Positions 9,223 to 29,575 of a DNA stretch of 64,000 bases are shown here, piece after piece; the first letter of the stretch is position 1; each line of letters starts with the position of its first letter. The translations under genes were made by a program, and so were the position numbers. Source of the DNA: Candidatus Latescibacterota bacterium (GTDB taxonomy: Bacteria; Latescibacterota; UBA2968; GCA-2709665). Below the pieces are notes generated by a model that worked only from the letters and a program-made list of their open reading frames with translations, was not told the DNA's origin and ran no database searches. The stretch spans positions 672,001-736,000 of the forward strand of contig OZ241917.1 in the NCBI GenBank assembly GCA_965203805.1, in the 5' to 3' direction.

Positions 9223-11625
9223 TCAGGGCGACGACACGTCGAGACTTACATCCCTGAACGTCAGCCTCGTGCCGGAAACGGCCGCGTGAGAGAGGTAAGC
9301 GCCGTCCGAGCCGGTCCTGATGACAGCGCAAATCGCATCCGTGCCAACGTCGCCCGCGCCGAACGTGCGGTAGGACCCGTCGGAAATGATGATGTGGTCC
9401 ACAACGCCACCGTGTTCCACGATCAGGTACGCGGTTCCCCCCGGCCCCTCGTTCTCGCCGCGGCGAACGCCCACTTTGGGCAGCGGCATTTGCCGGAAGG
9501 GATAGAGGACCACCACGAGGCCGTCCACATGGCCGTCGCCGGAGGTCGTCACGTCGAGTGCGGCCCACCGGATGGGCCGCCGGGCGGGGCGCTGGTTCGG
9601 AATGCCGCCCAGATGCGCCATTCCGGTGCCAAGTCGAATGGCAGGGGCATCGGGCGTGGCCACGTACAGACCGGGCGCTCCGGTCGAATACACGGCGGTT
9701 CCGCCTCGCTGCAGCGAGGTGGGGGAGTGCAGCACGAAAGATGCCTTTCGACGTTGGGGGTCTGAGGAGAACGCATCGAATATCAGGAAGTACGGATCCG
9801 CCTCCCGCGCGGGCGCCCCGGGTTTCACGAACAGGAAATGCCGTCGATGGCGGACACCCAGTGATCGGTAACCCTGGTGTTCAGCGGCAAAGTAGTCGAT
9901 ACCTTCCTGGTGGCTCCAGACGGGTTTCTCGCCGACGGCAATCCTGCGATCCAGGTTCGCGTCGTCAATCACGAGCATATTGTGCGCCATGGACGTCTTG
10001 TACCAGGGGCGGTGGAGCGGGTCGTCGTAGCTGACACCGATCCCGGCGTCGACGGCCAGCGCGCTGCCGTACGCGAAGAGTTCGAAACTGAGGACGTCCG
10101 GATGGGAATGGCCGCCGCCATACTCCCCGTAGTTGATGACCAGATAAGGACTCTCCGGCGTCCAATCCTTGCGCATCACGGCGAAGCCCGACGGCCTGAA
10201 ATCCATCGACGTTTCGGCGGGCGGCTCGACGGGGTCGTCGATGTCGGCGCCGAGAAGATTCCTGGCCACCCACAGCATGTCAGGCCGATCGAAGGCGCGT
10301 CCGCCATCGATAAGGATGTTCCGGTCGAACCGGCCCCTGCCGCCGTCGTTGACGGCAGGCTGAGTGCCGAGGGGGCTGATCAGGTACATCCAGTGGTTCA
10401 GCGTGCGTTCCAGCGGCGGACGCAGGGCGGCCGCGCGGTCTTCATGGCCGCCGAACTGCTCAAGGAGGTAGGCCAGGTTTCGCGGGTCTCGGTAGACGAT
10501 TGTGGAATAGCTGGACGGGCAACGCTCGGAATGGCAACCGTCTTCATAGAAGTCTTTCTGAAGGTGCTCTTCGATCCGGTACACGCCCTGCGAGGTCCAC
10601 CGTTGCGACTCCCTGAACTCCGGCAGGTTGAGGCCCAGCTCCGCCAGGGCGTACGAGCCCATTACCTGCCAGTTGCCCGAACGATACCCCTGCTTTTCCA
10701 GTTCGTACAGCCAGCGTGCGGACCCGAGGAAGTTTTTCAGAATCCGCTCGTGAGTCCGTACCGAAAGCCGTCCGCGGTTAAGGCGGTAGAATTCCAGGAA
10801 TACGCGGTTCCGCCGTGACCCGAGGCCGAGTTCATACCAGATGGGGTCCAGGTGCGTGTATGCGCCCTCAACGTCGTCCCGCTGCTCGTACCACTGATTG
10901 AAGAGTTTGTCGAAGGCATCCAGGTACTTCGTGTCCCGCGTGCCCAAGTACGCCCACAGGAGCGGACCCGACCAACCCCAATAGTGAAATCCGTATTTTC
11001 CGCTTCTGCCGTAATCCGCGTTGAAATCCACGACAGGGCCATGCTGGATCGTGACGCCGCCCCAACCCGTGATGTTGTGCGCGGCCACGCGGTCCGCCGC
11101 CGCCGTATAGTTTCTCGTGCTGAAGTACTGGAACGCCTCTTCAATCGTGTAGTAAGGGACGCCGATGTTGATATAGGCGAACCCGGGTCGGGTGTCCCAA
11201 TAGGTTCCCCAAGCCTTGTAGGCGGCGGCGTAGTCCCCCCGGTCGACGGCGCGTCTCACGTCCTCGAGTCCGGCGCGCGTCAGATCCATCGCGGCGAAGA
11301 GATCGGGATCGCTGATGTGCTTGATCTGCTGATCAAGATAGACCGGATCTTCGCGGAGATCGGCTCTGGCCGCACCAAAGGCCTCTGCAAAGAGAATGAA
11401 GTCACGGAAGCCGACCTGCCCGTCGAGGTTCAAATCGAAACGGTCGTCGAAGGTGTCGTCGGACCGGGACGTACCATAATTCCGGGCAAAGGCGACGAAA
11501 TCCGCGAAGCCCACGAGACCGTCGCCGTCGAAGTCTCCGGACAAACCGGGCCAGGCGGTGGAGAACACCAGTGCGACGACAAGAAATGGTACAAAACACT
11601 TCTTGATCAGGTTTCCAGGGATCAT
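9223..11625 (-). CDS. Secreted heparinase II/III-like polysaccharide lyase with N-terminal EF-hand/dockerin-like pair (copy B)
   Basis: Signal peptide, GDFDGDGLVGFADF / DLNLDGQVGFRDF Ca-binding pair, GNWQ, DGCHSE, GGHSHPD, AHNMLVID motifs. Start placed at ATG 11625 (the ORF is open to 11775). Confidence 0.8.
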   Translation of the reverse strand: MIPGNLIKKCFVPFLVVALVFSTAWPGLSGDFDGDGLVGFADFVAFARNYGTSRSDDTFDDRFDLNLDGQVGFRDFILFAEAFGAARADLREDPVYLDQQIKHISDPDLFAAMDLTRAGLEDVRRAVDRGDYAAAYKAWGTYWDTRPGFAYINIGVPYYTIEEAFQYFSTRNYTAAADRVAAHNITGWGGVTIQHGPVVDFNADYGRSGKYGFHYWGWSGPLLWAYLGTRDTKYLDAFDKLFNQWYEQRDDVEGAYTHLDPIWYELGLGSRRNRVFLEFYRLNRGRLSVRTHERILKNFLGSARWLYELEKQGYRSGNWQVMGSYALAELGLNLPEFRESQRWTSQGVYRIEEHLQKDFYEDGCHSERCPSSYSTIVYRDPRNLAYLLEQFGGHEDRAAALRPPLERTLNHWMYLISPLGTQPAVNDGGRGRFDRNILIDGGRAFDRPDMLWVARNLLGADIDDPVEPPAETSMDFRPSGFAVMRKDWTPESPYLVINYGEYGGGHSHPDVLSFELFAYGSALAVDAGIGVSYDDPLHRPWYKTSMAHNMLVIDDANLDRRIAVGEKPVWSHQEGIDYFAAEHQGYRSLGVRHRRHFLFVKPGAPAREADPYFLIFDAFSSDPQRRKASFVLHSPTSLQRGGTAVYSTGAPGLYVATPDAPAIRLGTGMAHLGGIPNQRPARRPIRWAALDVTTSGDGHVDGLVVVLYPFRQMPLPKVGVRRGENEGPGGTAYLIVEHGGVVDHIIISDGSYRTFGAGDVGTDAICAVIRTGSDGAYLSHAAVSGTRLTFRDVSLDVSSP

Positions 11626-11919
11626 CGCGTACTCGATATGATTGGCTGTCCGGTTCAAAACCACGGAGGCAGTCGTCGCAAGGTAGGGAAAGTGCGATGT
11701 GCTCATGCAAAGCGACCCGCAAAATCGAATTAAGGTTTGCCAGCGAGACATTCTCCAGACGCAGTCGGTTTGCAAAGCGCTCCAAGACTTAGCTCGATAC
11801 GAGAAATCGCTGGCGTATCGCTGTTAAGGGTTGATTGGACGATAATTAGCGTCTATGACCGCGGAGTTCAGTCCCACCAGTCGTGCAGGGATATTGGTGC
11901 AATAGTACCCGATTATTTC

Positions 11920-13305
11920 TCAATTATCCTCCTCTGCCTGATGGTTGTGGTATGAACACAATGACCCAGAGCCCCACCCACCAGTCTCGACACCAGAGGA
12001 CTCAATGGCAGCTTCGATTCGCTCGTGGGCGTCGTCAATTTCGGCCTCTGAGACGTCATAGTGTTGCACTGCGTTCTCTGCGAATGAGTAAGAGTCAACT
12101 ATGGTGTCACCACATATTGCGCAATAATTCACTGCGCCAAGGGCGAATGCCCATTCTTCAATGTGGTTGATGCCAGATGAGGACTCTATCCGCTCGATGA
12201 GATCTTCAATTCCGGACGGAAGTGACGAAAGCATTTCTCGCTTAGCGAATTGCTCAATCTTCTCAAGCGAGCGATGCGCCTCCTTTCTTACCCACATGAT
12301 TGCCTTTTCATCGCCTCTTGCGACGGCGTAAAGTGATGCTAGAAACACATCCTCGTTATCAATGCCAATTCCCAATACAGATCCATGGGCTTCTTCCGCT
12401 CTTTCACGAAAACTCTGACGATCAAGAACATCCCGAAGCTTCTCAAGCGTGGTAATATTGAGGTTCCTGCAGAGATTGAGAGCCATCCTAACCGTGTAGT
12501 CCGATGGGCTTCTTCCAAAGACCTCCCGGAATACAAACGCCAATCCTTGTAGCGAAACACGTCCCAAGTCCCGCGTGGTTTCGCTGTACCCGGTTTTCCG
12601 TTTCACCCGAATACGGATGGCGCTAGCAATCTTATCGGCAGCAGCCAATAACTCAGCAAGGTCGGTGACACGTGCACGTAGGTCTTCGGGTAGATTCGGC
12701 TGTTTATAGATGTCATTGTGAGAGAGGTGTGCCCAAGCGTGCTGCAGACACGATTGAATTTGTACTTCACACGGTACGAATGTACGAATGTGCGTGCCAA
12801 GGGCTAACCGAAAGTTCACGTGAAGTGCCCTATAGCCCGTGGCTTGGGGCTCCGTGACGTAATCTTGGACACTATAACCAACACCTTGAAATAGGTCCAT
12901 AGGAATACACTCCTTAAGCAGTTCCGAGAAACGGTAGACGTCTTCTATATTGTTGCAGACTACTCTGCCGCCTATGATGTCACCGCAGCACGTGAGCGCT
13001 TGATCCGAGTCCCATCCCATTTTCACAGCTTTCTGCTTTAGGCTAGCGAGTTCTTTTATTCGGATTGGGCGAACTTCCGCACGGACGAGGGTCTTGTCTT
13101 CAATCATTTTGACAGCCGACTCAAGAATATTCTGCATGCGCTTTGCCGCGGAACTAAAGAGTCGAGCCCTTGCCGTATATTTTTCGTGCAGATCGTGCAG
13201 GCACTTTGACATTGGCAAATCCCCGGAAATCTTGGTCGTATATAACTCAACGTTACATAACTTCCGTTTCTCAACTTCTGGTGTAAATCTGGGTATGTCC
13301 CACAT
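11920..13305 (-). CDS. RelA/SpoT-family (p)ppGpp/(p)ppApp synthetase domain protein with uncharacterised C-terminal region
   Basis: RIKELASLKQK, DIIGGRVVC, GYRALH, EVQIQSCLQHAWAHLSHNDIYK synthetase motifs; no HD hydrolase domain; C-terminal CAIC...CSYH. Start uncertain (13305 or ~13212). Confidence 0.85.
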   Translation of the reverse strand: MWDIPRFTPEVEKRKLCNVELYTTKISGDLPMSKCLHDLHEKYTARARLFSSAAKRMQNILESAVKMIEDKTLVRAEVRPIRIKELASLKQKAVKMGWDSDQALTCCGDIIGGRVVCNNIEDVYRFSELLKECIPMDLFQGVGYSVQDYVTEPQATGYRALHVNFRLALGTHIRTFVPCEVQIQSCLQHAWAHLSHNDIYKQPNLPEDLRARVTDLAELLAAADKIASAIRIRVKRKTGYSETTRDLGRVSLQGLAFVFREVFGRSPSDYTVRMALNLCRNLNITTLEKLRDVLDRQSFRERAEEAHGSVLGIGIDNEDVFLASLYAVARGDEKAIMWVRKEAHRSLEKIEQFAKREMLSSLPSGIEDLIERIESSSGINHIEEWAFALGAVNYCAICGDTIVDSYSFAENAVQHYDVSEAEIDDAHERIEAAIESSGVETGGWGSGSLCSYHNHQAEEDN

Positions 13306-13420: not shown

Positions 13421-13756
13421 TTATTCAAAGACCGGCTTCGAGACGTAGGCGACCCGCTTTCGGCCAGCGTAGTACTTCGTCCAGTCCGGTACATGAACCG
13501 TCATCAATGCCTTGAACAGTTTCCCGTGATTTGGGACGCGCAGATGTAACAACTCGTGTGCAATGACGAAGTCCTGGAATCCCTGTTCCTGATCTGCCAG
13601 ATCCACCGCTAGAGTCACGATGCCCGACGTCGAACAGGAACCCCATTTCCTTGTCATTCGCTGTACGCGGACAATTCTTGGCCGGACACCCAGTTTGTGG
13701 ACCCAGCAATCCACCCGACTGCGAATGGAACGACGACTTTCCTCAATAGAGCTCAT
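13421..13756 (-). CDS. Short YgjP/DUF45-like (M48 family) zinc metallopeptidase
   Basis: KWGSCS and HELLHL...H motifs; overlaps the hsdR stop, the usual position for this family. Confidence 0.8.
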
Positions 13757-16688
13757 CTGTGCCAAGTAGAATCCCAATTGCCGTTTCTACAATCCGGGTA
13801 CGTTCATCTCCATCTACTCCGAGTAGCGGACGATAGAGGGCAGCCCGAAATCTTCGTTGCTCGTCGACATTGATTGCGGCATTCGGAAAACGTTCGAGCA
13901 GGGTCTCTGCCTCACGAGCCAGGTTTTCGGCGGTTATTCCAGCAGCCGCTAGAGATTCGTCCTTCCTGAGCGTCCAGAACAACCCGAATGCACGAGTCGA
14001 AAAACCACTGTCTTTCGCGGCTCTTTCCGCCTCTTCTTTTTCTCTTGCCATCGCTGCCAGCTGCTCCATCGCCGCAAAGCTGGACGCATTCCGGTTCTGA
14101 AGATCCTCAAGGATGTGTTCGGCACGATCCTTGAGTGGTCGAAGAATCGGCGCCTTTTCAGGATCACCGTTGATTTCGTCTTGCAGGCCCCGCACCAGGT
14201 TGAACACCTTGGCCTCATCGGCGCCCGACTCATGTCGAAGCGCCTCGACGGTCGATGCATCAAAAGTTACCTCTTTAATCACATCTTCTAAACCTCCCTG
14301 GGTAACGCTGTCCTGCACCAGGCTTACGGTCTTCAGGCCGAGAGGCGCGTCATAGGTGACGTTTGTCTTATAGGCATTCACGAGTACCGTATACAATTGT
14401 GCAAGCTGCTTATAGGTACCAATGTGGTCGCGAAGTTCACGGGATGGGGACAAGATCTCCCACAACGCTTCGATCTCCTTGTAAACTTGAAAGTACGCCT
14501 TGCGCGACTCGGGATCCAGGAAACGACCGTAGACGACTTCCTCAAGCCGCTCATCCGCGCTCCCACTGTCTGGCTCACGAAGATATTCGGTTTTCGCCCA
14601 CTCGATCTTGTTTAGACAGTCCTCGATAAGGAGATCGAGATCCTCAATTACTCCGCTGACGTCGGTCGAGTCGAACCGGAGTGCTTTCTTCAGTTCCCGC
14701 AATACGCCCACGAAGTCAACGACGAGGCCAATTCCCTTGCCGACACCGATTGCGTCAACGTGTGGGCGATTGACGCGCGCGATTGCTTGCAGAAGTACAT
14801 GGTCTCGCATTGGTTTGTCGAGGTACATGCAATAGAGAAGGGACGCATCGTAGCCTGTGAGTAGCTTGTCGGTTACAATCAGGATCTTTGGATTCTCATC
14901 CGCCTTCTTGAATAAGAGGCGTACGTTCTCCTCGTGTTCCGTCGATAGCTGCAACTGTGCGACGAGCGGACGTTCTATGGCGTCGGCCGGGTTTTCGGTG
15001 TACACCGCCTCCGACCACTCGGACGGCAGGTGCTTGTCCAGTGCGCGCTTATATTTCGCGCAAGCCTCGCGGTTTACGCCCACAAGAAACGCCTTGTAAC
15101 CAAGCGGTAACACGTTTTCCTTAAAGTGCTTGGCGACGAACGCAGCAACCTTCTCGATTCTGACGTCAGCCGTGAGGAAAGTACGCAGGCCGACAGCTCG
15201 ATCAAGAACCTTGTTTAGTTCCACGACATCGGTAACGCCTTCCGACTCTGCCAATTCGAAGAATTCCTTGTCAAGTCGGTCGACCGGTACGGTCATTTCA
15301 CTCGGCGCCATCGTATGGCGGAGTGGAAGCGTGGTTTCATCTTCAATCGACTCGGCGATGGAGTACTTGTCGAGATAACCCAACTCGTCGTCGACACCGA
15401 AGATCTTGAAGGTGCCTTCGCCCTGGTCAGTCTTCGCGATCGGTGTGCCGGTGAATCCGATGATGGTTGCATTCGGAATTGCTGCCATCATGTACGTGCC
15501 GAGATCCCTGGCGACCGACCGATGGGCTTCGTCGATGAACACGTAGATGTTGTCGCGTGTGTTCGTGTTTTTGTCGATCCCCTCGAATTTGTGGATCATC
15601 GATATGATCAGGCCCCGTTTGTCGGCTTCCAGTAATTCCTGTACTTGCTTCTTCGAACTTGACCGCCAGACGGCAATGTCCTGCTTCTGCATCTCGCCCA
15701 ACAACCGATCGACCCAGCCCTTGAGCTGTCCTTCGATTTCCGTTCGGTCGACAACCGCGACCACTGTCGGTGTGCGAAACCGGTCCTTGCGTTCCAAAAT
15801 CAATCTCGCTGCGGTGAGCAGCGTAAAGGTTTTGCCCGAACCCTGGGTATGCCAGATAAGCCCGCGGCGTTTCACAGACTCGGAACAGCGCTCGACAATG
15901 CGATCGATCGCACGCCGTTGATGCTGGCGCAGCACCGATTTGCGTGTTTCACCGTCTTCTACGTAAAAAAGGATCCAATCCCGTAGCGTGCGGAGGAAAT
16001 CCGTCGGTTCAAAGAACGACTGGACTGCGAATCGGTAGCTCTCCTCTGGCCGTTCCTTCCAGCGCGCCATGAAACGCCTGTTGGCGTTCCAGGTCACGCC
16101 ATACCAGTAATCCAGGAGATGCGTCACGTTGAAGAGTTGCGCCGCGCCGATCAGTTCGGGCGTCTCCGCCTCGTAACGTTTGAGTTGGGTGATCCCGCGC
16201 TCAATAGCGTTGCTGTCTTTCGGATTCTTGTGTTCAACGATGGCAACCGGAACGCCATTGACGACGAACATCACATCTGCCCGGTTGCTCTTTCGGGCAG
16301 GCGGTTTAAGCCGCCATTCCCATGTGACGTGGCGGACGTTTTCGCCGGGTTGATCGAAGTCGATGATTTGTACGCGACGGTTCCGACGCTCAACCTCGTC
16401 GTAAAACTGACGCTCCCCGCGTAGCCAGGAAAGCATCTCGCGGTTGCCCTCAATCGTCGACGGTACCGCCTCAAACCGCTCGACCACGGAGCGAATGGCC
16501 TCGTCCGTCATCCAGGGGTTGAACCGCCGCAGTGCGCCCTCCAAGTCGTCCTTGAACAACACCCCGGTCTCGCCGCTCCGCTTGCGCAGAGCCTCCTTGG
16601 GGGAGATGGGTTTCCACCCGACCTCGGACGCGTGACGGACCATCGGGAACTGGACGGCATCTGCTTCAGTTACGTTGAACTCGGTCAT
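13743..16688 (-). CDS. hsdR: Type I restriction endonuclease subunit R
   Basis: [18 protein letters not shown] nuclease motif, HTQGSGKT Walker [26 protein letters not shown]. Start placed at ATG 16688. Confidence 0.95.
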
Positions 16689-16939
16689 AGTCGTAAGACA
16701 CCTATAAGAACAATAACGCCCGTATCGCGCCTCCATCGCGTCAGCGGTCCGCGATTCGAGGGGAAAACCAGTCCTTTGTCTCTCAACTCTTCCAGCGCCC
16801 TTCGCACTTGACGCTCACTGACTCCGGAACCCAGACGAGCGTGAATCTCACGGTGCGGGCGCGTCTCAGTCGTGGTCCTGCACTCCAGTGTCTCAGATTC
16901 GCCGGAGGCGACAATGGCTGCGATCTCATCGGGCGTCAT
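16685..16939 (-). pseudogene. Internally deleted AlbA_2/Schlafen-like DNA-binding protein remnant (N-terminal stub joined to C-terminal wHTH)
   Basis: MTPDEIAAIVASGESETLEC resembles the AlbA_2 start (GEsetlEFK) and runs directly into [18 protein letters not shown]...TRW, a wHTH-like tail. Stop overlaps the hsdR ATG. Confidence 0.6.
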
Positions 16940-17443: not shown

Positions 17444-17605
17444 TTCGTTTTCTCCCTTCTCATCGAACTCGCTTGCCGTCCAATCAAAACACCGTACAAT
17501 GTTACTCCAAACCGCATCGACACCGCAAGAAGCAGCACCCCGCCACGCGCAAACGACACGGCCTCGCGCGCCGATTCAATCAGGTGGTGTAAGCGGATTT
17601 CGTCA

Positions 17606-18396
17606 GTGCGCCGTGAAAAGGCGCGGATCTTCAGTGGGTGAAAGTCCCAACCCGACAAGGGTTGCTTCAGCCTGCCTGCGCCGGATGCTCGGCAGGCAGG
17701 TCGGTAGCAATCGGAGCAGGGACGTAGGCAACGAAATCTCTGAAGCCTCCGGTGTAGAGGGTCGCAAGGCGACTCGGCGAGTATGCGGGCCGAAACGTGA
17801 GTGAACGCTGAGCAGGCCTGGAAAGAGACAGCAACGCGAGCATCCAGCGGTCCCGCCTGCCTGTCCGAGGGACGCAGGCAGGCCGGGGAAATGGCGGAGG
17901 CACGTATACAAGGAGATCCGACGCAACACCTGCCTGCGCCGAGTCCTGCTCGGCAGGCAGGCGGGAAGCCCCAGCGGTGGTGCAGGGACACCAACCGGAC
18001 GCCCGTGAGGGACAGGCCGGGCCGCATGGGGTGGCGGACAGGCTCGTAGTACCCGTGAAGCCGGGTAACGCCGGTGGAGGGAAGGGGCCTGACTTCGGAT
18101 GTGCTTGTGAAGGGGACAACGGTCGGGAGAGTGGCGCAAGCCTATAACCTCCTCCAAAAGTAGACGAGGCGACTCCAGAACAAGCTTGGGCTTCAGGTGA
18201 AGCTGTCCGGGCAGCGCGGTCAGCGTGTGTCTGAAGGCGACGTCCGTCGGAGAGCCGGATGCGGGAAAACCGCACGTCCGGTTCGACGAGCGGGATGTGG
18301 AAACGGGGCACGGAGGGGCTATTGAGGCACCGCCAGACGAAAGGGGCGGAAACGGATAGGCCACTCCTAAACTACCGCGCCACATCCCGACTCTAC
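17606..18396 (+). mobile_element. ORF-less group II intron (791 nt), antisense to the host operon
   Basis: 5' GTGCG at 17606; domain V GAGCCGGATGCGGGAAAACCGCACGTCCGGTTC (18252-18284); long domain VI ending CGACTCTAC at 18396; DIII-like GTAGTACCCGTGAAGCCGGGTAACGCCGGTGGAGGGAAGGG; no RT ORF; removal restores the hepT frame. Confidence 0.9.
17671..17961. repeat. Three REP-like palindromes CCTGCCTG-N(11-17)-CAGGCAGG
   Basis: Copies at 17671-17700, 17856-17882 and 17929-17961 with identical 8-bp inverted arms and variable interiors. Confidence 0.85.
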
Positions 18397-18699
18397 TTAT
18401 TGATCATATTGCACTTCTTCTGTGGCCAGAACGTCTTGCCGAAAATAGGGGCTCAGATCCTCGGGTGCTCGCAGATCCACTTTGCGTCCTGTGAATAATT
18501 CGGATAATTCCAATTCCATGCCGGCAATACCTGGCAGTCCAGGAATGCGATCCGGTTCAAACTACACGAGCACATCTATGGCGCTCTCCGGTCCGAAATT
18601 CTCCCGCAGTACAGAACGAATGACAGAGAGCCGTTTGATGCCGTGCTCCTAGCAGAACAACGTCAGCGCAGTCTCTGATACAGATACCTGTAGGTTCAT
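18397..18699 (-). pseudogene. MNT minimal nucleotidyltransferase (MntA-like antitoxin) pseudogene
   Basis: Translates as MNLQVSVSETALTLFC*EHGIKRLSVIRSVLRENFGPESAIDVLV*FEP...GRKVDL...[13 protein letters not shown] stops at 18651-18649 and 18564-18562; GS/DxD motif decayed. Absent from the ORF track. Confidence 0.8.
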
Positions 18700-18824
18700 T
18701 GCTTTTGCTCTATCATTCCTCCGGCGTTTTCCTTAATGAGGCACTTTCATCATTCGGTCACCCGACGGTTCTAATCGGTCTTTTTGTGTTTATCTTCAGA
18801 CTCCTACGCTGGGGTTGGATCCCA

Positions 18825-21800
18825 TCAATTTTTCATACGGCGACGGTCCCGTTTTCGGCTCAGGGCCTTTCTAACTGGCGGGTCGGCCACTCCATCTGGA
18901 ATGATGGGATCGTCATCCTCACGCAAGATGACAAGGTCGGGATCGTTTTCACCTATCTGCCATGCCTCACGGATCTCCAATTGGCGTTTGGCAATTGCAA
19001 ATTGGCGCGACGGCAAATTGGAGATTTCGTTTCTTGGGTTTAACTGAACCGGTGCAAGGAAGAATCGCCCTGCATTATTGTATGCCTCGACGAATTTCTC
19101 GAGATTCTTCAAAGAGTTTGGCGACATTCGCTGCATTCTCGATACGAAAAGAATGAACTTCCCTTGGCCCCCTGAGAATTGCTGAAAACTCGGTCCAAGA
19201 ATGACGCCATATTCAGCGGGGTTTTGTTTCGAAACGCCTTTGATTATTGCCAGCCTCAATGCATCGTCCGCATCGCCGTTTCCCCATCGATCCTTCCAGG
19301 CACGAAAAATCGCATTGCCCGCCTTTCCATCTTTAAATGCTATCGACAGAATCGGTGGCTCGTCGGCGAAAATGATAAATGCGGTTCCTTGCCACTTGGC
19401 CTTATCCCACAATGGAATATCGATAGGTGAAAGAACCCGGCGGTCCGAATGGCGTATCTTCTGTCTATCATTTGGGGCGTCAGGCGGCGGGCCGGTACCA
19501 AACTCAGGTGGTCCGGTCTCAATCGACGAGGCAGAACTCTTCGATGTGCGCCAAGAATTGTTGCGAATTGCTTGATATTTATGGTCATCTTTGTCGATCC
19601 AGTCTAGCAGCCGAATCCTAGGCGTCTTGCCAAAGACGTTTCTATTCAGTGTAAGCGAATCATTGTGATTCAAGGCTCGTGACAATCCGTGTTCCTCCCC
19701 TATTACCCGATTCAACCATGCCTTCACGTCACGTATCATCAGGAACCTACACGAAATCTTCAACAGGCATTCTTGAAGCCAATCCGAATGTTCTTGTCCG
19801 GTGGCGATACTTGCGACTCCATAGTCGACGGGGTGGGTTATCTTAACTTTGGTACTATCGTCTTCGATGAAGTGGACCTGTGGAGTTCCCTCTTTCTGAT
19901 CTGATGTCTTGACGTTGAAAGATACGTGTTCGCGATACGGGAATACGTGCCGCTCGTCACTAGTTGAGAGGAATGCCTCCAAAGCACCTAAAAGCGATTC
20001 CACGACGCCAAACGACGCCGAGTTATTGGGCGTCTCGACGGCAAGTTCTATTCCCAGAATCGTCGACCTCAAGACGCTAGTTTCCCCAACGACCAAAACT
20101 GGTCGCGAGGAAATGTCTTCTGCGGCAGGTTGGTCTTGCCATTGTTCAAAGAAAGTCTGCACTCTTTCAGCATCTTCGTCGGCAGGGATGCAACCTTCTT
20201 CACGCAAGACCTGCTCATGTCCGAAAGCGAACAGCAAAGCCATTCGAGCAGAGTCGAGTCCTAAGCGCTTTAGTGAGCTTGGCAGGGATGCAACCTCTGG
20301 CAGTGCTTCCAGCGGTAGGTTCAATAGATGAATGCCAAGGACCCACTCCTGCATCTGCAGTTCTTCGGTATAGGCTATTCGATGATCCTCGGATAAATCT
20401 AGATGTGCGGCGATCGAATTCGCAAGTGTGATCGCATCCAAGATGTGAGGAATGCGTCCCAGTCTAAGTTCGATCCACACAATCCGATTGAGGGCAATTA
20501 ACGCTTCAGAGATTACCTGTCCTTCTTCAATAAACGTGGCCAATGAACGTTCGACGGCCGCCAATGCCTTATTTCTGGCCGCCCAGGGAAGTCCGGCGCA
20601 CTCATATGCGTAGCTTGCGCCGATTAGAGTCGTTACCAGTTGTTCTCTATACTCTTCCTTCATCAATAACTCCTCAGCGCGGCCGAACCATTGGATTGCT
20701 TCATATTGCCTGTTGTGTTTCATCTTCTGTTGCGCTCGTTTTACGTAGGCGATGCCTGCTGCGCCATCGCTACGCCGTTTCCTCATTACGTCTGCTAATT
20801 TATCGTACAGGGCATCAAATGCAGGACTATCGAAATATTCGCCGAGTTCCCCAACAAGATCGAATAGATGTTCGACTGAATACGCGCCCAAATTGTCTGA
20901 CTTTTCAACGACTTCTGTTAATTCCTGCCACGCCTTGTTTTCTTCATTGGAATTCCGATCGTGTAAAGCACGGGTTGTTCGCATCAAGATTAAGCTTGTG
21001 CGTGCCTGAAGTGCATTGTTAGGCCGTGTAGAGTCCGCAGCTAAAGTCTCCAGCACATTGGCCAAGCTCCGCGAACGACAACTGATCTTGGACACTCGGC
21101 CGTCGATTAGTTCTGCATTTACCGATGTGAGCAGAAGCATCCAGAGATTCACAAGTAGACCGACATCTTGGGACTGAACGGAAGTCAGCGCGTATTGTTC
21201 GGCTTTTTCGTAGTAATGGTTGAATTCGGTATAGTCCTCGTACCACCAATAGGCTGTCCAAGCGCGATTATACGCAATGCGCAATCGTTGTTGGAAGTAG
21301 TCCACTTCTTGGGCTATTCGATCTGCAATTGCGAAGCGACGATCCACCTCGTTGCGCGGTCGCTCAAGACTCCTGGCCAAGATTGCACTACGTAGACAGT
21401 CCTCGACCAGCTGATATCGAGCATTTTGGTAATTTGACGGATCGGAGACCTGCTTATCCAGTTTATCGAGTTCCTCGAGTCTTGCGGTGTCACGAGGACC
21501 CCTTCGGGCCGTCTTTTCTCTCCGTACATCTTCAACGCCCAAAGCTGCAAAGTAAGCCTCAATATGCCGATTGTCGGATTCGTAGACTTTCTCCACTATC
21601 CAAGCACGATCGATGATGTGTACGGGAATCTCCACTTCTTTACTAAGTATGTCTTCATTTGTCGACCGCTCTTTGTCGCTGACGAATTGATTGGTAAAAA
21701 AGTAGATTAGCTTGTAGTCACGACCCGTGGATAGGATATTCTTCACGTCGGCCTTAACCTTGGGCTTCCAATCCTTCTTGGCGCTGAACGCAAACGCCCA

Positions 21801-22211
21801 ACGCTCTGCCCCGGCAGAAGGTGAACCGATCCACCATCGTTCCGTGATTCTTCCCGCGACCGGATAGGTCTCAGTGTCAACCTTGCTGTCTCCGCCACCT
21901 GTGGGGCCGGTCTGAACACGTAGATTCGGGCAGATTTCCCTTTCTGCTAATTTCCGGCAAAAGTGTTCGAACTGGTACTCCTGCTTTCGACTGGTTAACG
22001 TTTCCAAATGGTATTCGAACATTTGCTTTGGCAGCCAATGCGTGCTATCTACTAGCGTATCAAAGAAGAGGTCTGGATGTCGATACCGCATCAGATCTCT
22101 AGGATTATATGCGTTTCGGCGGGATGCAACCTGATCGCAATTCTCTGGTTTACGACCACGATTGTCACGTTTCGGCTTTTTATCCTTGTCATCGTTCATA
22201 TTACATACCAT
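18825..22211 (-). CDS. Large putative defence protein: N-terminal Mrr-like restriction-endonuclease-fold domain, TPR-like helical repeats, unknown C-terminal domain
   Basis: FEHFCRKLA...GGGDSKVD...AFSAKKDWKPKVKADV...FFTNQ resembles Mrr-like PD-(D/E)xK domains; long helical region (AYNRAWTAYWW, YEAIQWFGRAE); no Walker A motif seen. Confidence 0.6.
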   Translation of the reverse strand: MVCNMNDDKDKKPKRDNRGRKPENCDQVASRRNAYNPRDLMRYRHPDLFFDTLVDSTHWLPKQMFEYHLETLTSRKQEYQFEHFCRKLAEREICPNLRVQTGPTGGGDSKVDTETYPVAGRITERWWIGSPSAGAERWAFAFSAKKDWKPKVKADVKNILSTGRDYKLIYFFTNQFVSDKERSTNEDILSKEVEIPVHIIDRAWIVEKVYESDNRHIEAYFAALGVEDVRREKTARRGPRDTARLEELDKLDKQVSDPSNYQNARYQLVEDCLRSAILARSLERPRNEVDRRFAIADRIAQEVDYFQQRLRIAYNRAWTAYWWYEDYTEFNHYYEKAEQYALTSVQSQDVGLLVNLWMLLLTSVNAELIDGRVSKISCRSRSLANVLETLAADSTRPNNALQARTSLILMRTTRALHDRNSNEENKAWQELTEVVEKSDNLGAYSVEHLFDLVGELGEYFDSPAFDALYDKLADVMRKRRSDGAAGIAYVKRAQQKMKHNRQYEAIQWFGRAEELLMKEEYREQLVTTLIGASYAYECAGLPWAARNKALAAVERSLATFIEEGQVISEALIALNRIVWIELRLGRIPHILDAITLANSIAAHLDLSEDHRIAYTEELQMQEWVLGIHLLNLPLEALPEVASLPSSLKRLGLDSARMALLFAFGHEQVLREEGCIPADEDAERVQTFFEQWQDQPAAEDISSRPVLVVGETSVLRSTILGIELAVETPNNSASFGVVESLLGALEAFLSTSDERHVFPYREHVSFNVKTSDQKEGTPQVHFIEDDSTKVKITHPVDYGVASIATGQEHSDWLQECLLKISCRFLMIRDVKAWLNRVIGEEHGLSRALNHNDSLTLNRNVFGKTPRIRLLDWIDKDDHKYQAIRNNSWRTSKSSASSIETGPPEFGTGPPPDAPNDRQKIRHSDRRVLSPIDIPLWDKAKWQGTAFIIFADEPPILSIAFKDGKAGNAIFRAWKDRWGNGDADDALRLAIIKGVSKQNPAEYGVILGPSFQQFSGGQGKFILFVSRMQRMSPNSLKNLEKFVEAYNNAGRFFLAPVQLNPRNEISNLPSRQFAIAKRQLEIREAWQIGENDPDLVILREDDDPIIPDGVADPPVRKALSRKRDRRRMKN

Positions 22212-22314
22212 GACAACATATCGTGTGTAAGTGTATCTAATGGGCCATCATCAAGGATAGTTGATAGACACATATCCTAGAGGGTAGCGAGCGGTTAGTA
22301 ACTACCAAGCGAGA

Positions 22315-22920
22315 TCATGAGTTGTACCGTCTCATTCGTCGGCTTAAGTCATATTCACAACGACCGCGATCGTCGAATGTCGCGTCAACCAAGAATCGGA
22401 GCTTTGCGACGTCATTTTCGATTCTATTCCACGGCGTCACGGAGATTTTGGCCTCAGGTTTGAGAAGATTATCAATGATCCGATCTGGCATATATGGATA
22501 CCGACGTTCATATTCACGTCTCGTGTCGACCGTTATCCATGATGTGACTTCTGGATATACGCGGCTCTTCTCTCCATCTCCGTGTGAAGCAGTGAAATTA
22601 TCAGATGTTCCAGGTAAATTAACGACCAGAACGCCCGATTTCTTATTGACGGTTCCATCAAACATGCTTGAGTAAATCTCCCAGTCAACGTGCTTTCTAC
22701 GTTCCGTCTCTACTCCGACCAGAACAATCGTCACCGTCGAATCTCTCAAGTATTCGTCTCGGATAATCTCACGTATCCTCTCGTCGCTAAGGTTTTCGGA
22801 AACATCCCCGGTATCCACGGACTTATCTATAAAAATCGAATGTTGCCATCCCAATTCCACCAGACGTTCCTTGTACCATTGGTCGTTCTCGTGGTGGTAA
22901 CTAATAAAGACCTTATGCAT
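22315..22920 (-). CDS. thsB: Thoeris ThsB-like TIR protein (DUF1863)
   Basis: HKVFISYHH.NDQ.YK, IRDEYLRDSTVTIVLVG, VDWEI with the catalytic Glu; 8-bp overlap with the upstream SLOG gene. Confidence 0.85.
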   Translation of the reverse strand: MHKVFISYHHENDQWYKERLVELGWQHSIFIDKSVDTGDVSENLSDERIREIIRDEYLRDSTVTIVLVGVETERRKHVDWEIYSSMFDGTVNKKSGVLVVNLPGTSDNFTASHGDGEKSRVYPEVTSWITVDTRREYERRYPYMPDRIIDNLLKPEAKISVTPWNRIENDVAKLRFLVDATFDDRGRCEYDLSRRMRRYNS

Positions 22921-23758
22921 CGTTTCCTCCCGCGCATTCTAGGTTCAATTCATCGCGTATCCGTCTAAGACCCCGCGATACGAGCGTTACCGCCTGATGT
23001 ATATGCGGCGTCCGGGCAAGAATAGCGTTGTCTTCGTCAGAGAGTCCGTTTTGCAGATCACCCGGTGAGTAACTCTCAAAGCACGAGCGACCCTCCCAGT
23101 TCGAACGTAAATTTGCCCAAGGCTCTACCAGCCCAATAGTCTCCGCAATGTCGCGGGTACAGCCGCCGAAGCCGCCGAGCAGAAATATTGGCTGATGCGA
23201 CTGAAGAGACAGAAGCGTTTCCTCGGCGATGCCCGGCATGCATCCCCTGTATCCATCTACTCTTCCACCGAGCACAATACGCGCCTGAGTTTCTTCTCGC
23301 ATGACAACCCGCATCGTCGTCAGCCCTTCGGCCCACTCGTCGTCACCCGGCTCATATTCTGGAAGTTCCAGCCGTTGTTCCCACTCCAGGCGACTGCCAT
23401 CCCGTGCAAGAAAGATGACGTGCGCGGACTCCTCGTGCCCGGCGGTGAAGGCAGCCAAATCGTCCACCGTCATCCGAATGTGCACGGGCCACGCCAGGTA
23501 GTCGGTAACAGTGATCTTTCCGATATGGCGCGGATGATCCCGGTACCGCACAATCAGTTCGAACAACAACTCGGTAAAGCCGTGAACGCGTAGATCGCCA
23601 CCGTACGCCAGACTCGTTCCCGAAGCGAGTAGATGCAACGCAATCTCGGCCATTGCATCCTGCAGGTGCCCCTCACTCAGTCCGAGCAGGGCCATGTCAG
23701 GGCTTTCTGATGTCGAAATCGCCACAGTCGGTGTCGGCCTGGTCTTCTGAAGTGTCAT
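22913..23758 (-). CDS. Stand-alone SLOG-superfamily nucleotide-binding protein (cluster 2-like)
   Basis: VAISTSES, LAYGGDLR, LTTMR, ARIVLGG, PGIAEE, PIFLLGGFGG motifs; ATGA overlap with the upstream TIR gene at 23755-23758. Confidence 0.8.
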   Translation of the reverse strand: MTLQKTRPTPTVAISTSESPDMALLGLSEGHLQDAMAEIALHLLASGTSLAYGGDLRVHGFTELLFELIVRYRDHPRHIGKITVTDYLAWPVHIRMTVDDLAAFTAGHEESAHVIFLARDGSRLEWEQRLELPEYEPGDDEWAEGLTTMRVVMREETQARIVLGGRVDGYRGCMPGIAEETLLSLQSHQPIFLLGGFGGCTRDIAETIGLVEPWANLRSNWEGRSCFESYSPGDLQNGLSDEDNAILARTPHIHQAVTLVSRGLRRIRDELNLECAGGNDA

Positions 23759-24921
23759 GAGGTTTCCTCCATCCACTCTGTAAGCGTCAATGTTCGCACA
23801 TTCGGTGCGATCTCTGAGAATAACCGGGCCTCATCAGTACCCAATCGTGGTTCAGGATACACGATCGCAGAACCAGCCTCACTTTCGTTAGCCGGTAGCG
23901 TCGCCAATGAGATTAACTCAGGTGGCCGTGCCGTGAACAGCACGTTGGAGTATGCCTCTCGAAACGGCTCAACGCGGCAACGCCATAGGTAGGTTCGGAA
24001 GACTTCGTCGAGCAGGCGTCCAATCGTCGAAGGAATCCTATCCTGTTCGCCCACGCCCATCCGCACGATTGGCACATTGCCCATGTATGGTATACTCCGC
24101 TGATCAAAATCGCGCAGACAATCGACGACAACCATCGGTACATGGCGTCGCTTGGCCTCAATTACCTCTCGCCGGCACCACTCGCGGGATGAATAGGAGT
24201 CCGTGTGCAACGCCACGACAGCACTGGTTTCGATCTGATGCAACAGAACCTCCCGGAAAGACAATCCGGCCGGGATGTCGTGGACATCAAAGAAACTCGA
24301 CAAAGCACTGTTTTCGTGTAACCAGTCACGGATGCTTCGCGCGACGGGTTCACCGTCATCGTCGTGCTTCGAGTGGCTGATAAATACCTGGATTTTCTCC
24401 AGGTAATCCCCAAGAGACGCCTCCGTTGATGCCGGACTGCGAAGCCGATGCCTAAGCATTCGAATGAATTCACCGGTGAGATCGCTGATGAGGCGCTCCT
24501 CGCGGACCGCTTTCGATCCTTCCCAACGATCCCACCGCAGTGCGTGCTCGTCAAGTTGAAGTTCACGATCTCCAGATTCCATTACTACAGGAAAGAGGCG
24601 AGCGGACAGTCCTCTTGTCTGTGTGTTCCGGGAAAGCTCGCGAACAAAATTCGACCATGCCGTGTCGTCGGCCAGTGCCGAGTCCATCAAAACGACGACG
24701 GCCGTCGCATCTGCTTCGTCCCAGTCGACTGATAGCGGCACAAGTTCACCCGGTGCTATCTCATGACGATAGAGAACGCTCAACCCAGGATCTCCGGCGA
24801 TGTTTCGATGGCGGTCTCGGCTAAAATGCATGCGAAGCACATCTGCTACCTCGACACCGTTCTCATTCGAGGGATGCCAGACGACATAAAGAGCGAAAAG
24901 TGGGCGAGTCGTGTTTACCAT
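23755..24921 (-). CDS. TIR-domain protein (N-terminal degenerate TIR-like module + TIR + short C-terminal module)
   Basis: VFISHSKHD, FFDVHDIPAG, DSYSSREWCRRE (catalytic Glu). Start placed at ATG 24921 (the ORF is open to 24987). Confidence 0.85.
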   Translation of the reverse strand: MVNTTRPLFALYVVWHPSNENGVEVADVLRMHFSRDRHRNIAGDPGLSVLYRHEIAPGELVPLSVDWDEADATAVVVLMDSALADDTAWSNFVRELSRNTQTRGLSARLFPVVMESGDRELQLDEHALRWDRWEGSKAVREERLISDLTGEFIRMLRHRLRSPASTEASLGDYLEKIQVFISHSKHDDDGEPVARSIRDWLHENSALSSFFDVHDIPAGLSFREVLLHQIETSAVVALHTDSYSSREWCRREVIEAKRRHVPMVVVDCLRDFDQRSIPYMGNVPIVRMGVGEQDRIPSTIGRLLDEVFRTYLWRCRVEPFREAYSNVLFTARPPELISLATLPANESEAGSAIVYPEPRLGTDEARLFSEIAPNVRTLTLTEWMEETS

Positions 24922-25084
24922 TTCACGATCCGTCGTAACCTTTGTAGGTATGGTGCGTAGGATTGACCATGGTCCGTGATTGGGCATTCTAAGCTATCGA
25001 TTCGACAAATCGACGATTCTACGGACAATTCGATTTCTTTTTTCTCGATGTCGTACCCCTCACCACTGCGCTGCACGCCGGCAA

Positions 25085-26056
25085 TCAGGCTTTATCTTCA
25101 TTTAATTCCTTCGATGCAGTTGCGCTAGCTAGTTGCGAAAAATCAAGTCGTTCGAGAAATTCCGCGCCATGCTCTTCGCAGTAGTCCTCTGTTGCCCCTA
25201 GAATCATTTCGTTGGCAACCAGCAGTGCAGGGAACAGCCCTTCGTCACTAAGATCAAACCAATTTAGATAAAAAAGGTAACAATCTCCCAATCTCTCGTG
25301 TGACTCGCACGCTTCGTCCTCGGTACTTCTGCGTATGGAACATTCGAATCCCAAAGATCTGACGTCACCCAGAAGGCGCTTCAGCCTAGCCAACGACTTG
25401 CCAGTGCATCTACGCAATAGATCTGCGTCGATGTGGATGTTTTCGGGTAAATCCGCTGGACAACCAAATCGAATGAGGCTGATGACCGCGTCCCTTTCAT
25501 CGCAGTTCATCCGCTTAAGCACATGGAAGAATGACCATGCCTGCGAGTAAACATGGGGCTGGATCTCATAGTCATCGTCAATGCCAAGTCGTTCGAACAA
25601 ACGATCCAAGGTCGGCGGCAGGTAGTTCCGCCGTACATCTTTTCCAAGCTTTTTCACTATCAGGTCACAAAAACCAGACGGCGATGTTTGTCTCAAATCG
25701 ACGTAATGCACGGTGTTGAGTAACCCCGGAACTCGTGTATCATCAAATCTAGCAGGCAGGATATACTCTTGGTTCTGCTCCATCGCACGGGCTTGTGCAC
25801 TTTGCCTCTCCCTGGTAGGCCAGACTTTGGCTGCATAGTCTTTAGAAACAAAGATTACGCAAAACCTGCACAAATGCTCATAAATCTCGCTCAAGTGGGC
25901 GTAAAGGTCCTTTCCCCACATAGTTTCCTGTGCGTAATCGTCAAAAAACACGCGGATGCCGCGGGATGTGAGTGTATCGGCAACTCTCCTCACGTACTCC
26001 CGCTGTTCGCCAGCGAACGACAATCCGATATCATATTCAAAGATTTTTTCACCCAC
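25085..26056 (-). CDS. TIR-domain protein with uncharacterised C-terminal domain
   Basis: YDIGLSFAGEQREYV, VFFDD, VIFVSKDYAAKVWPTRE, YILPARFDD. Confidence 0.85.
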   Translation of the reverse strand: MGEKIFEYDIGLSFAGEQREYVRRVADTLTSRGIRVFFDDYAQETMWGKDLYAHLSEIYEHLCRFCVIFVSKDYAAKVWPTRERQSAQARAMEQNQEYILPARFDDTRVPGLLNTVHYVDLRQTSPSGFCDLIVKKLGKDVRRNYLPPTLDRLFERLGIDDDYEIQPHVYSQAWSFFHVLKRMNCDERDAVISLIRFGCPADLPENIHIDADLLRRCTGKSLARLKRLLGDVRSLGFECSIRRSTEDEACESHERLGDCYLFYLNWFDLSDEGLFPALLVANEMILGATEDYCEEHGAEFLERLDFSQLASATASKELNEDKA

Positions 26057-26129: not shown

Positions 26130-27329
26130 CTATTCCGCACGTATACCACCTGTCATCAGTTCTTTTAAAAGCGTCTTGAATAACTCACACAGCACCCTGC
26201 CTTTTCTGCGGTGAAGGTCAATTTTGCGGCCAATGGCGTCGAGTATGGCCACGATCTCGTGCTGCTCTTCCAAATTAGCCGGATGCGCTACTGGAAGATT
26301 GCGTACGGTATCCAAATTCAGATTCTGTTGTTGGCCACCATGTGCCATGCGACGAATAGCGCGATAGCGAAAGGAAAGAAAGTGATATAGGTATCTGGTG
26401 CCGACCAAACCATCGTCACGAGGTCTAATTGCCGCACACGCTTGATTACATGCCGCCTCGGTCCCCAGAATTGCAACCCTGCCTCGCGTCACGCCCTGCC
26501 CATACATCGCCAGCAGCAGTGTTTCCGGTGGGAGCAGCTGTGCGGCTGACTGATCAAGGCCATCTTGTGTGATGTGTTCTTCGGTCTCGCAAATAACGCG
26601 ATAGTCAATTTCCGTGGTTTTAACCCATGGGATCGTTCCACCTGTCCAAAACGCTGGTGTTCTTCGAGACGGAGTTCCACCGGATACGACCGAGAAGTGA
26701 TCGTTGATTGGTTCAATAACCCAATTTTCCGGCACATGCCCGATTTCGGTTTCTTTCTGCGCCTTGCCACGAAGGCCGCGAGTAAACAGCGATTGCATCG
26801 CGGCCCGTTTCAGGTCTTGACCCTCTTCAATTAACTTCCCTGATATTTCGATTGCCTCATGCACAAGCCAAAGGAAATCGGCAATCCGCTTCTGTTCATC
26901 GAATGTGAACGCAGGCACCTCAAATCCGCCTATATGCGCCCATGATGTCCTTGGATGCTGGACGCCTGTCGTTCCCGCAACCGCATACTCGAGGAATCCA
27001 CGAGAATGAAGAACTACAGCGAGGAATCGGGGGTCTACGTTGGCCTTAGCCCGGAGTACGAGCAATTCCGTCGTGCAGACACCCGTCTCGTCAGCCAAAA
27101 TTGCCTTGTCGAGATACGGACGGAGTTTTCCGTACAGCACGTCATCGGCTTGAAACGCGGATGTGGTGCTTCGCATCTCTGACGCCCGACCACCGCCAAT
27201 TCGAACAAGCCGCCCCGAAGCCAGATGCTCGAGACCAAGATAGAGCGCGGCCGGCCGGGCGCCGGGTCTCACAGGCTCTCCCATCAGGTCGCACAGGTCC
27301 GCAAGGCGGGTTGTGTTCCTTTTCATCAC
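26130..27329 (-). CDS. hsdS: Type I restriction-modification specificity subunit S
   Basis: Two TRDs (DVLYGKLRPYLDK; SGGTPSR...NQACAAI) with conserved EQKRIA / EEQHEIVAIL helices and KELMTG end. Confidence 0.92.
   Translation of the reverse strand: MMKRNTTRLADLCDLMGEPVRPGARPAALYLGLEHLASGRLVRIGGGRASEMRSTTSAFQADDVLYGKLRPYLDKAILADETGVCTTELLVLRAKANVDPRFLAVVLHSRGFLEYAVAGTTGVQHPRTSWAHIGGFEVPAFTFDEQKRIADFLWLVHEAIEISGKLIEEGQDLKRAAMQSLFTRGLRGKAQKETEIGHVPENWVIEPINDHFSVVSGGTPSRRTPAFWTGGTIPWVKTTEIDYRVICETEEHITQDGLDQSAAQLLPPETLLLAMYGQGVTRGRVAILGTEAACNQACAAIRPRDDGLVGTRYLYHFLSFRYRAIRRMAHGGQQQNLNLDTVRNLPVAHPANLEEQHEIVAILDAIGRKIDLHRRKGRVLCELFKTLLKELMTGGIRAE

Positions 27330-27730: not shown

Positions 27731-29575
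<1,845 letters not shown>

Follow-up and report, generated by a model that had tools for sequence, protein, structure and literature searches.

A divergent type III-like Thoeris cassette with a putative split TIR-SLOG effector carried in a type I restriction-modification operon of a Latescibacterota bacterium

The locus described here lies in a stretch of 64,000 nucleotides (nt) from contig OZ241917.1 of a Candidatus Latescibacterota bacterium (assembly GCA_965203805.1, positions 672,001 to 736,000), which is referred to as the window and whose first letter is position 1. A type I restriction-modification (R-M) operon in this window contains, in the gap separating hsdS from hsdR, five consecutive minus-strand genes that encode, in this order, the TIR proteins TIR323 and TIR410, a stand-alone SLOG protein, a third TIR protein of the ThsB family (ThsB201), and a protein of 1128 amino acids (aa) (Table 1). 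A preliminary description of the sequence had placed these five open reading frames (ORFs) after hsdS, nested within a type I R-M operon, and both points hold: the ORFs were found where it had put them, with hsdM, hsdS and hsdR on their flanks. HsdM, HsdS and HsdR were all identified with Pfam and PADLOC, so that the type I R-M set is complete, and a gene for a YgjP-like peptidase comes after hsdR at the end of the operon. The same description had read the five genes as a single Thoeris-like system with three TIRs, in which the SLOG protein would activate the 1128-aa protein as a nuclease. The comparative data presented below point instead to a smaller unit, consisting of TIR410, SLOG and ThsB201.

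Table 1. Genes and other features at the R-M operon of the window
Feature	Positions	Strand	Assignment or remark
RelA/SpoT-domain protein, 461 aa	11920-13305	minus	PADLOC PDC-S33, 61.9 bits; adjoins YgjP-like gene
hsdR	13743-16736	minus	Pfam HSDR_N, SWI2_SNF2, ResIII; PADLOC REase_I
ParE-like toxin, 89 aa	16947-17216	minus	PF24732 ParE_like, 46.5 bits (cut-off 24.4)
Putative antitoxin, 74 aa	17219-17443	minus	toxin-antitoxin pair in cargo gap, just upstream of hsdR
ORF-less group II intron	17600-18400	plus, antisense to operon	Rfam RF02003, RF00029
Broken MNT-like nucleotidyltransferase gene	18400-18702	minus	two in-frame stops; abuts 3' end of intron
1128-aa ORF	18825-22211	minus	no Pfam match
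ThsB201	22315-22920	minus	PF08937 ThsB_TIR, 79 bits
SLOG, stand-alone	22913-23776	minus	PF18163 LD_cluster2, 242 bits
TIR410	23755-24987	minus	Pfam TIR_2 at residues 201-290, 50.5 bits
TIR323	25085-26056	minus	Pfam TIR_2 at residues 12-125, 67.7 bits
hsdS	26130-27329	minus	Pfam Methylase_S; PADLOC Specificity_I, 352 bits
Retropepsin-like aspartyl protease ORF, 123 aa	27326-27697	minus	gag-asp_proteas, 33.7 bits; between hsdM and hsdS
hsdM, with N-terminal HTH_3	27731-29575	minus	Pfam N6_Mtase, HsdM_N, HTH_3; PADLOC MTase_I

Analysis of the gene junctions bore out the stop/start overlaps that had been claimed for the middle three genes. The stop codon of TIR410 and the start codon of SLOG share the tetranucleotide ATGA, provided that SLOG begins at the ATG at position 23758; this is the start used by most SLOG homologues in an alignment of 30 of them, and it is the likely true start of the gene. 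SLOG and ThsB201 overlap by 8 nt (ATGCATAA), and a GGAGGA-like stretch precedes the start codon at each of these two junctions. Between ThsB201 and the 1128-aa gene, on the same strand, there is a gap of 103 nt. The G+C fraction from 18.5 to 26.5 kb ranges from 0.46 to 0.57, compared with 0.60 to 0.63 in the flanks. The characterization of the five genes as AT-richer than their surroundings is correct in that respect, but from about 11.5 kb onwards all of the island, including hsdR, has a lower G+C fraction, and TIR410 and SLOG (0.55-0.57) are the least AT-rich part of the region. Scans for promoters and terminators gave counts at the level obtained with shuffled sequence.

In each of the three TIR families represented at the locus an invariant Glu sits four residues past a conserved Trp, in what we take to be the position of the catalytic Glu of TIR enzymes. 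This residue is E83 in TIR323 (29 of 29 aligned rows), E274 in TIR410 (25 of 25) and E81 in ThsB201 (28 of 28), in agreement with the earlier observation that all three TIRs keep it. The absence of SIR2, Macro and caspase domains had also been noted, and none was detected by Pfam in any of the five proteins.

The composition of the conserved unit was examined by collecting loci with a SLOG homologue (51-87% identity) from one genome per species. The 60 loci obtained span Acidobacteriota, Binatota, Latescibacterota, Tectimicrobiota, Gemmatimonadota, Chloroflexota, Pseudomonadota and others. A homologue of TIR410 lies directly upstream of SLOG in 47 of them, and a ThsB homologue is likewise present in 47, mostly directly downstream and in four cases on the other strand; the full set of three, each gene covered over at least 85% of its length and free of stops, was found in 19. 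On the other hand, neither the 1128-aa protein nor TIR323 was found at any of the 60 loci (tblastn, E-value up to 1e-5). When the flanking ORFs were clustered, the most widely shared other family, one of R-M genes, occurred in 14 loci. The reciprocal comparisons gave the same picture. None of the 14 loci of the 1128-aa family examined contained TIR410, SLOG, ThsB or TIR323, and SLOG, ThsB and the 1128-aa family were missing from all 43 TIR323 loci examined, these being the full-length ones among 80 returned by an alignment-based scan; no neighbour family recurs in more than four of the 43. These data indicate that the conserved unit is formed by the three genes TIR410, SLOG and ThsB, and that TIR323 and the 1128-aa protein are separate cargo beside this cassette. 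The five genes are not one system, and the notion of a three-TIR module has to be abandoned, TIR323 belonging to an independent family.

The alignment of 30 SLOG homologues contains invariant glycine-rich and polar motifs, including AWPVHIRM, MPGIAEE and GGFGGC. The SLOG homologue of one SAR202 locus (L059) carries an insert at alignment columns ~80-106 that looks like the beginning of a TIR domain (with an FISHS-like motif) and that may be an artefact of gene calling or recombination. A search for proteins bearing this SLOG domain recovered 148 at E-values up to 1e-5, and domains were counted in the 120 listed that have at least 504 aa. A TIR Pfam domain is present in 109 of these, patatin in two, EF-G domains in two and AAA in one; the remaining six have no effector-type domain, five consisting of LD_cluster2 alone and one carrying a STALD SLOG as well. 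No nuclease or TPR Pfam domain was found among the fusion partners in the 120 proteins listed.

Two TIR-SLOG fusions are collinear with the adjacent TIR410 and SLOG genes of the window. In one of them, a protein of 657 aa, residues 1-389 resemble residues 23-410 of TIR410 (44% identity, E-value 2e-122), and the protein (P0241) ends in a SLOG that is 55% identical to that of the window. A 686-aa protein encoded on a Priestia megaterium plasmid, in which Pfam recognises TIR_2 and LD_cluster2, contains a TIR410-like part at residues 1-371 (29% identity, E-value 2e-47) and a SLOG at residues 402-684 (34% identity, E-value 3e-38). Gloeothece PCC 7424 and Aureispira have plasmid-borne fusions of the same kind, in both cases with further TIR genes adjoining, which in Aureispira include three ThsB_TIR genes. 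In Klebsiella pneumoniae and Pseudomonas veronii, plasmids carry the split arrangement, with separate TIR410 and SLOG genes and a ThsB_TIR gene, at loci with neither R-M genes nor the 1128-aa gene; the plasmid SLOG genes carry the RefSeq label 'hypothetical'. In two further proteins of ~1130 aa (P0243 and P0245), an N-terminal LD_cluster2 SLOG, 51-53% identical to that of the window, is followed by a patatin part.

Judged from these alignments, TIR410 and SLOG correspond to the two halves of one TIR-SLOG protein found elsewhere, in which SLOG is the predicted ligand-sensing half and TIR410 the predicted effector half. By the same token, patatin appears as an alternative effector on the LD_cluster2 SLOG sensor. 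A constant SLOG whose partner is swapped between TIR and patatin is best read as part of a ligand-gated effector, and the exchange of effectors on one sensor is the pattern of known signalling defences. The proposal that SLOG is a separate subunit is upheld; moreover, since TIR410 plus SLOG is the split form of a single TIR-SLOG protein, the effector of this operon is probably not missing.

TIR410 had been described as a double-module TIR, which was not borne out. Pfam recognises a single TIR domain in this protein, and a profile comparison of the N-terminal domain with the TIR domain found no resemblance (hhalign probability 0.2%), which lends no support to a second TIR. An AlphaFold2 (AF2) model of TIR410 (pLDDT 79.8, pTM 0.83) comprises an N-terminal alpha/beta domain (residues ~30-190), the TIR domain (~196-334) and a small C-terminal alpha/beta subdomain. 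In a structure search with residues 196-334, the TIR region matched the SARM1 TIR with a Z-score of 10.7, amid generic flavodoxin-like folds, and the top Foldseek matches of the model were proteins with tandem alpha/beta domains. The model and the tandem-domain matches would both fit a further flavodoxin-like domain at the N-terminus, which we regard as plausible.

The third gene of the cassette, ThsB201, matches the PADLOC ThsB models as well as PDC-M50B. ThsB201 is predicted to act as phage sensor and signal-making enzyme because it belongs to the Thoeris ThsB TIR family, whose ThsB_TIR protein is, in type I Thoeris, the component that makes the signal according to the Introduction of a preprint (Yirmiya et al. 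2025). Across loci the small TIR genes differ in number and type and the TIR-SLOG component is constant, which fits a role of the former as interchangeable sensors.

Altogether, we consider it probable, by a modest degree, that TIR410, SLOG and ThsB201 form a self-contained Thoeris-like signalling module in which TIR410 plus SLOG would be the counterpart of ThsA. This reading is favoured because of the conservation of the three genes, the TIR-SLOG fusions, the exchange of TIR for patatin on the same SLOG, the translational coupling suggested by the gene overlaps, the invariant E274 and E81, the plasmid loci with the split form and a ThsB_TIR gene, and the independence of the other genes of the gap. 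In the mechanism that we propose, ThsB201 would sense infection and turn NAD+ into an ADP-ribose-derived signal, which would be bound by the stand-alone LD_cluster2 SLOG; SLOG, bound to TIR410, would then activate the TIR domain of the latter, probably by way of ligand-driven oligomerisation, to degrade NAD+ as the effector, and the infected cell would no longer support the phage. In this scheme TIR410 would most likely play the part that SIR2 has in ThsA. The identity of the signal, the assignment of one TIR as maker and the other as executioner, the depletion of NAD+ and the anti-phage role are all inferred by analogy. TIR-SAVED and TIR-STING of CBASS (cyclic-oligonucleotide-based antiphage signalling systems) are ligand-activated TIR effectors, and the pair resembles them, as they are described, in that a nucleotide-sensing domain is joined to a TIR NADase and ligand-driven oligomerisation is expected. 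It differs from them in that the sensor is a SLOG and the signal would presumably come from a TIR and not from a CD-NTase. The steps leading from signal to NAD+ loss were modelled on this biology and on characterised Thoeris systems (Yirmiya et al. 2025 preprint).

The cassette was compared with the known Thoeris types. With type I Thoeris it shares a ThsB_TIR protein adjoining a SLOG-bearing partner and, as predicted here, the scheme in which a SLOG reads a signal produced by a TIR and thereby governs an NADase. On the other hand, none of the five proteins contains SIR2 (Pfam) or matches the PADLOC ThsA model, and the predicted NADase of the cassette is a TIR on a separate polypeptide. The SLOG families also differ, that of the window being LD_cluster2 and that of ThsA belonging to STALD (Ka et al. 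2020); a fused TIR-SLOG relative scored only 23.6 bits with STALD, compared with 278 bits with LD_cluster2. The view of a Thoeris-like module lacking a SIR2-SLOG ThsA, put forward in the preliminary description, is therefore sustained by the presence of ThsB_TIR together with the absence of detectable SIR2 and ThsA.

Type III Thoeris is said to have been reported originally by van den Berg and co-workers in 2024. It has been treated as a recently suggested operon architecture (Rousset et al. 2024), and it is defined, in the account given by the preprint of Yirmiya et al. (2025), by a SLOG-domain protein as the component other than ThsB; the type comprises ThcA and ThcB proteins, and its effector is called ThsD by Yirmiya et al. 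(2025). The window resembles this architecture in having several TIRs in the operon, TIR410 and ThsB201 within the cassette and TIR323 beside it, and in having an LD_cluster2 SLOG protein as the non-ThsB component of the cassette. In addition, ThcB4 is the best NCBIfam model for TIR410 and its relatives (33-56 bits). However, the score of TIR410 with this model (NF058526, 375 positions) is 45 bits, confined to the TIR, against a cut-off of 220, and the ThcA model (NF058525, cut-off 110 bits) does not match the SLOG of the window at E-values up to 10. The two SLOG families also differ in length, with 264 positions in LD_cluster2 and 184 in the ThcA model, and the cassette has two TIRs, fewer than the name ThcB4 suggests. 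ThcA matched weakly (16-23 bits) the SLOG part of three of the five relatives tested. It was found nowhere in the source genome at E-values up to 0.01, in none of the 401 genomes of the class of the cassette-bearing genome G001, in G001 itself or in any of 14 control genomes. PADLOC v2 recognised only the TIRs. As for a complete match with type III Thoeris, which the preliminary description had named as telling against its own reading, agreement extends to the architecture, with TIRs plus a SLOG, and not to the NCBIfam ThcA and ThcB4 models. The cassette has a type III layout but is at best a remote relative of that type, and by the curated models it does not qualify as a member. In a wider sense, the cassette may represent a widespread Thoeris branch that uses TIR both as alarm-maker (ThsB201) and as executioner (TIR410), with the LD_cluster2 SLOG separate, fused or placed on patatin; we put this forward tentatively, as an idea that falls a little short of being probable.

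Several observations weigh against a complete three-gene signalling module. At least one intact member is missing from 41 of the 60 SLOG loci, so that the intact trio is found in a minority of the loci retrieved; SLOG occurs alone in eight loci, and in one an insertion sequence separates TIR410 from SLOG. TIR410 includes an N-terminal domain to which no function has been assigned, the SLOG of the window is not recognised by PADLOC v2 or NCBIfam, and the roles given to the two TIRs derive from family membership only. Furthermore, the SLOG superfamily is described as including nucleotide-modifying enzymes and not only sensors (Ka et al. 2020).

A first alternative is that the roles are reversed or shared: TIR410-SLOG would sense the phage and make the signal, with SLOG as a regulatory nucleotide-binding domain and ThsB201 as the NADase effector, or the two TIRs would form a hetero-oligomeric enzyme. 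Both TIR410 and ThsB201 keep the invariant Glu, the extra domains seen in the TIR410 model could sense phage components, and the Yirmiya et al. (2025) preprint describes type III Thoeris as uncharacterised in its mode of signalling. However, the proteins that make the signal in characterised Thoeris, as presented in that preprint, are those of the ThsB_TIR family; the SLOG-patatin fusions join SLOG to an effector and not to a sensor; and the genes that vary across loci are the small TIRs and not TIR-SLOG. We therefore regard a reversal or sharing of roles as unlikely.

Still less probable, in our judgement, is that SLOG acts as a LOG-like nucleotide-processing enzyme, either degrading nucleotides as an effector or converting the product of a TIR into the signal. 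The enzymes included in the superfamily provide a precedent for such a function, and the strictly invariant polar and glycine-rich motifs of the family speak in its favour, with MPGIAEE presumably resembling the LOG motif. In its fusions, however, this SLOG is attached to the effector domains TIR and patatin in the manner of a sensor, and no solved LOG enzyme was matched: a search of PDB sequences with the SLOG-family profile gave two matches only, both to ferritins and at chance level.

The location of the cassette in an R-M operon suggested a further alternative, in which it would be a guard wired to the type I R-M system that fires when a phage anti-restriction protein disables R-M. PrrC in EcoprrI is a precedent for such a guard, and it is, together with the 'R-M-linked ORFs' of Campylobacter, a case of cargo in type I R-M loci. 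In 10 of the 60 SLOG loci the cassette has close homologues of the R-M genes (hsdM 68-81% and hsdR 65-74% identity) beside it, in two arrangements, with the cassette between hsdS and hsdR in six and upstream of hsdM in four Longimicrobiales genomes. This R-M lineage is nevertheless absent from the other 50 loci and from all five plasmid loci examined. In the SLOG tree the R-M-associated copies fall into two groups (support 91/93, with one row without R-M, and 100/96), which is consistent with two associations spread by transfer, and the largest clade, of 17 rows, is without R-M.

The gap between hsdS and hsdR contains unrelated genes in other genomes. A short prokaryotic Argonaute (pAgo) gene with SIR2, AIPR, Fic, Nmad2/MazG_C/UDG and Schlafen-like ATPases were all found in this position, and in five loci the gene directly upstream of hsdR is a DUF3800 gene. 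The short pAgo (Piwi) genes are located at 9545-12552 in locus L084 and at 6047-8095 in L005, one of them being followed by a SIR2_2 gene. TIR323 occurs without the cassette directly behind hsdS in two other genomes (L084 and L099), and a broken copy of the 1128-aa gene lies directly upstream of hsdR in L066. In this R-M lineage the space between hsdS and hsdR is thus a recurrent cargo slot in several phyla. The presence of unrelated cargo in the same gap argues for a slot that travels with the R-M genes and not for functional wiring, and we consider a guard function highly improbable. The slot is similar to the PrrC and Campylobacter cases in that unrelated defence or toxin genes lie between hsdS and hsdR; it differs in belonging to a single R-M lineage across phyla and in the range of its cargo, which includes Thoeris-like, pAgo, AIPR, DUF3800, Fic and toxin-antitoxin genes.

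The window itself contains additional cargo in this slot, between the 1128-aa gene and hsdR: a ParE-like toxin-antitoxin pair, a group II intron and a broken nucleotidyltransferase gene, all of them separate from the cassette. The intron was recognised by RF02003 at 17632-17800 (88.5 bits, gathering threshold 49) and by RF00029 at 18250-18396 (45.8 bits, gathering threshold 40), and at least five further copies with 89-100% identity are present in the same genome; two minus-strand ORFs within it, of 260 and 195 aa, are spurious. The broken nucleotidyltransferase is 74% identical over 101 aa to an intact homologue (L099, 8301-8612; Pfam NTP_transf_2) located in the same R-M slot. Outside the slot, the retropepsin-like ORF is conserved in L008 and L084 as well, at the corresponding place and with 87-91% identity, and the 461-aa RelA/SpoT-domain protein may be a defence or toxin gene of the alarmone-synthetase type.

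With regard to the two proteins beside the cassette, TIR323 combines its TIR domain with a conserved tail of 190 aa and matches the PADLOC single-gene candidate PDC-S66 (52 bits). A total of 900 homologues were found, and the data on its loci indicate that it is independent cargo with no conserved partner. The 1128-aa protein gave no match in Pfam at E-values up to 10, in NCBIfam, in PADLOC, or in phmmer and profile searches of PDB sequences; its family comprises more than 1166 proteins of ~1100 aa without annotation. Its AF2 model (pLDDT 81) comprises an N-terminal alpha/beta domain (residues ~37-236), a TPR-like array (239-700), a second alpha/beta domain (711-850) and a C-terminal one (924-1100). 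The whole model retrieved only TPR proteins with Foldseek, and residues 239-664 matched TPR structures with Z-scores of 10-12, LGN/Pins and Rap proteins among them at ~12. The sole non-TPR structure among the 50 matches listed was Avs4 (8dgf_A), whose residues 1-176, which we take to be an Mrr-like nuclease head, superpose on residues 59-228 (Z-score 9.7, root-mean-square deviation 3.4, 142 aligned residues, 14% identity). The designation of the protein as Mrr-like and TPR-like therefore receives structural support from the model. At the sequence level, no nuclease was matched by Pfam in the window protein or in 38 relatives. The family has two invariant segments, GGGDSKVDxE and FSAK, the former in a low-confidence loop of the model, which could form a PD-(D/E)xK-type site; D108, D112 and K145 are among the invariant residues.

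As in Avs4, a long TPR-like array follows the N-terminal domain. The 1128-aa protein differs from Avs4 in having two extra C-terminal alpha/beta domains, and helical repeats are seen in its model from residue 239. A STAND NTPase was likewise not detected: neither P-loop nor STAND domains were matched by Pfam, nor a STAND NTPase by NCBIfam or PADLOC, and nSTAND6 matched weakly (E-value 0.033) in two of the 38 relatives. The 14 loci of the family share no common neighbour, a single cluster recurring in two of them, and their contexts are defence or mobile islands with RES, KAP NTPase, type III R-M, integrases and Fic. It is plausible that the protein is a stand-alone nuclease sensor and a candidate single-gene defence, and it might be an NTPase-less, Avs-like single-protein nuclease sensor of a new kind.

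The proposal that the free SLOG relays a TIR signal in trans to this neighbour, as a TIR-signal-to-DNase system, deserves next to no credence: it draws on the adjacency of the genes on one strand, with the short gap that separates them, and on the Avs4-like head, but the two families never co-occur in the 60 SLOG loci and 14 loci of the 1128-aa family, the latter family has no conserved neighbour of any kind, the fusion partners of SLOG are TIR and patatin and not nuclease or TPR domains, and the closest syntenic operon (L003) carries the cassette between hsdS and hsdR without the 1128-aa gene. Given this lack of co-occurrence, which the preliminary description had itself named as telling against the idea, and the simpler effector offered by TIR410, the SLOG-to-nuclease link is refuted by comparative genomics.

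These results show that adjacency in a defence island, even within one operon, does not make genes partners. The 1128-aa family, with more than a thousand members lacking annotation, deserves consideration as a possible new single-gene defence. What remains at the locus is, by its sequence relationships, a divergent type III-like Thoeris cassette with a candidate mechanism, probably complete in itself and carried in a type I R-M operon. If the mechanism proposed here is correct, a Thoeris-like operon 'without effector' would be explained by a TIR effector under the control of a detachable SLOG sensor. It would also provide a testable mechanism for systems with multiple TIRs and a SLOG, such as type III Thoeris, whose signalling is described as uncharacterised, and the signal might be a TIR product not yet described.

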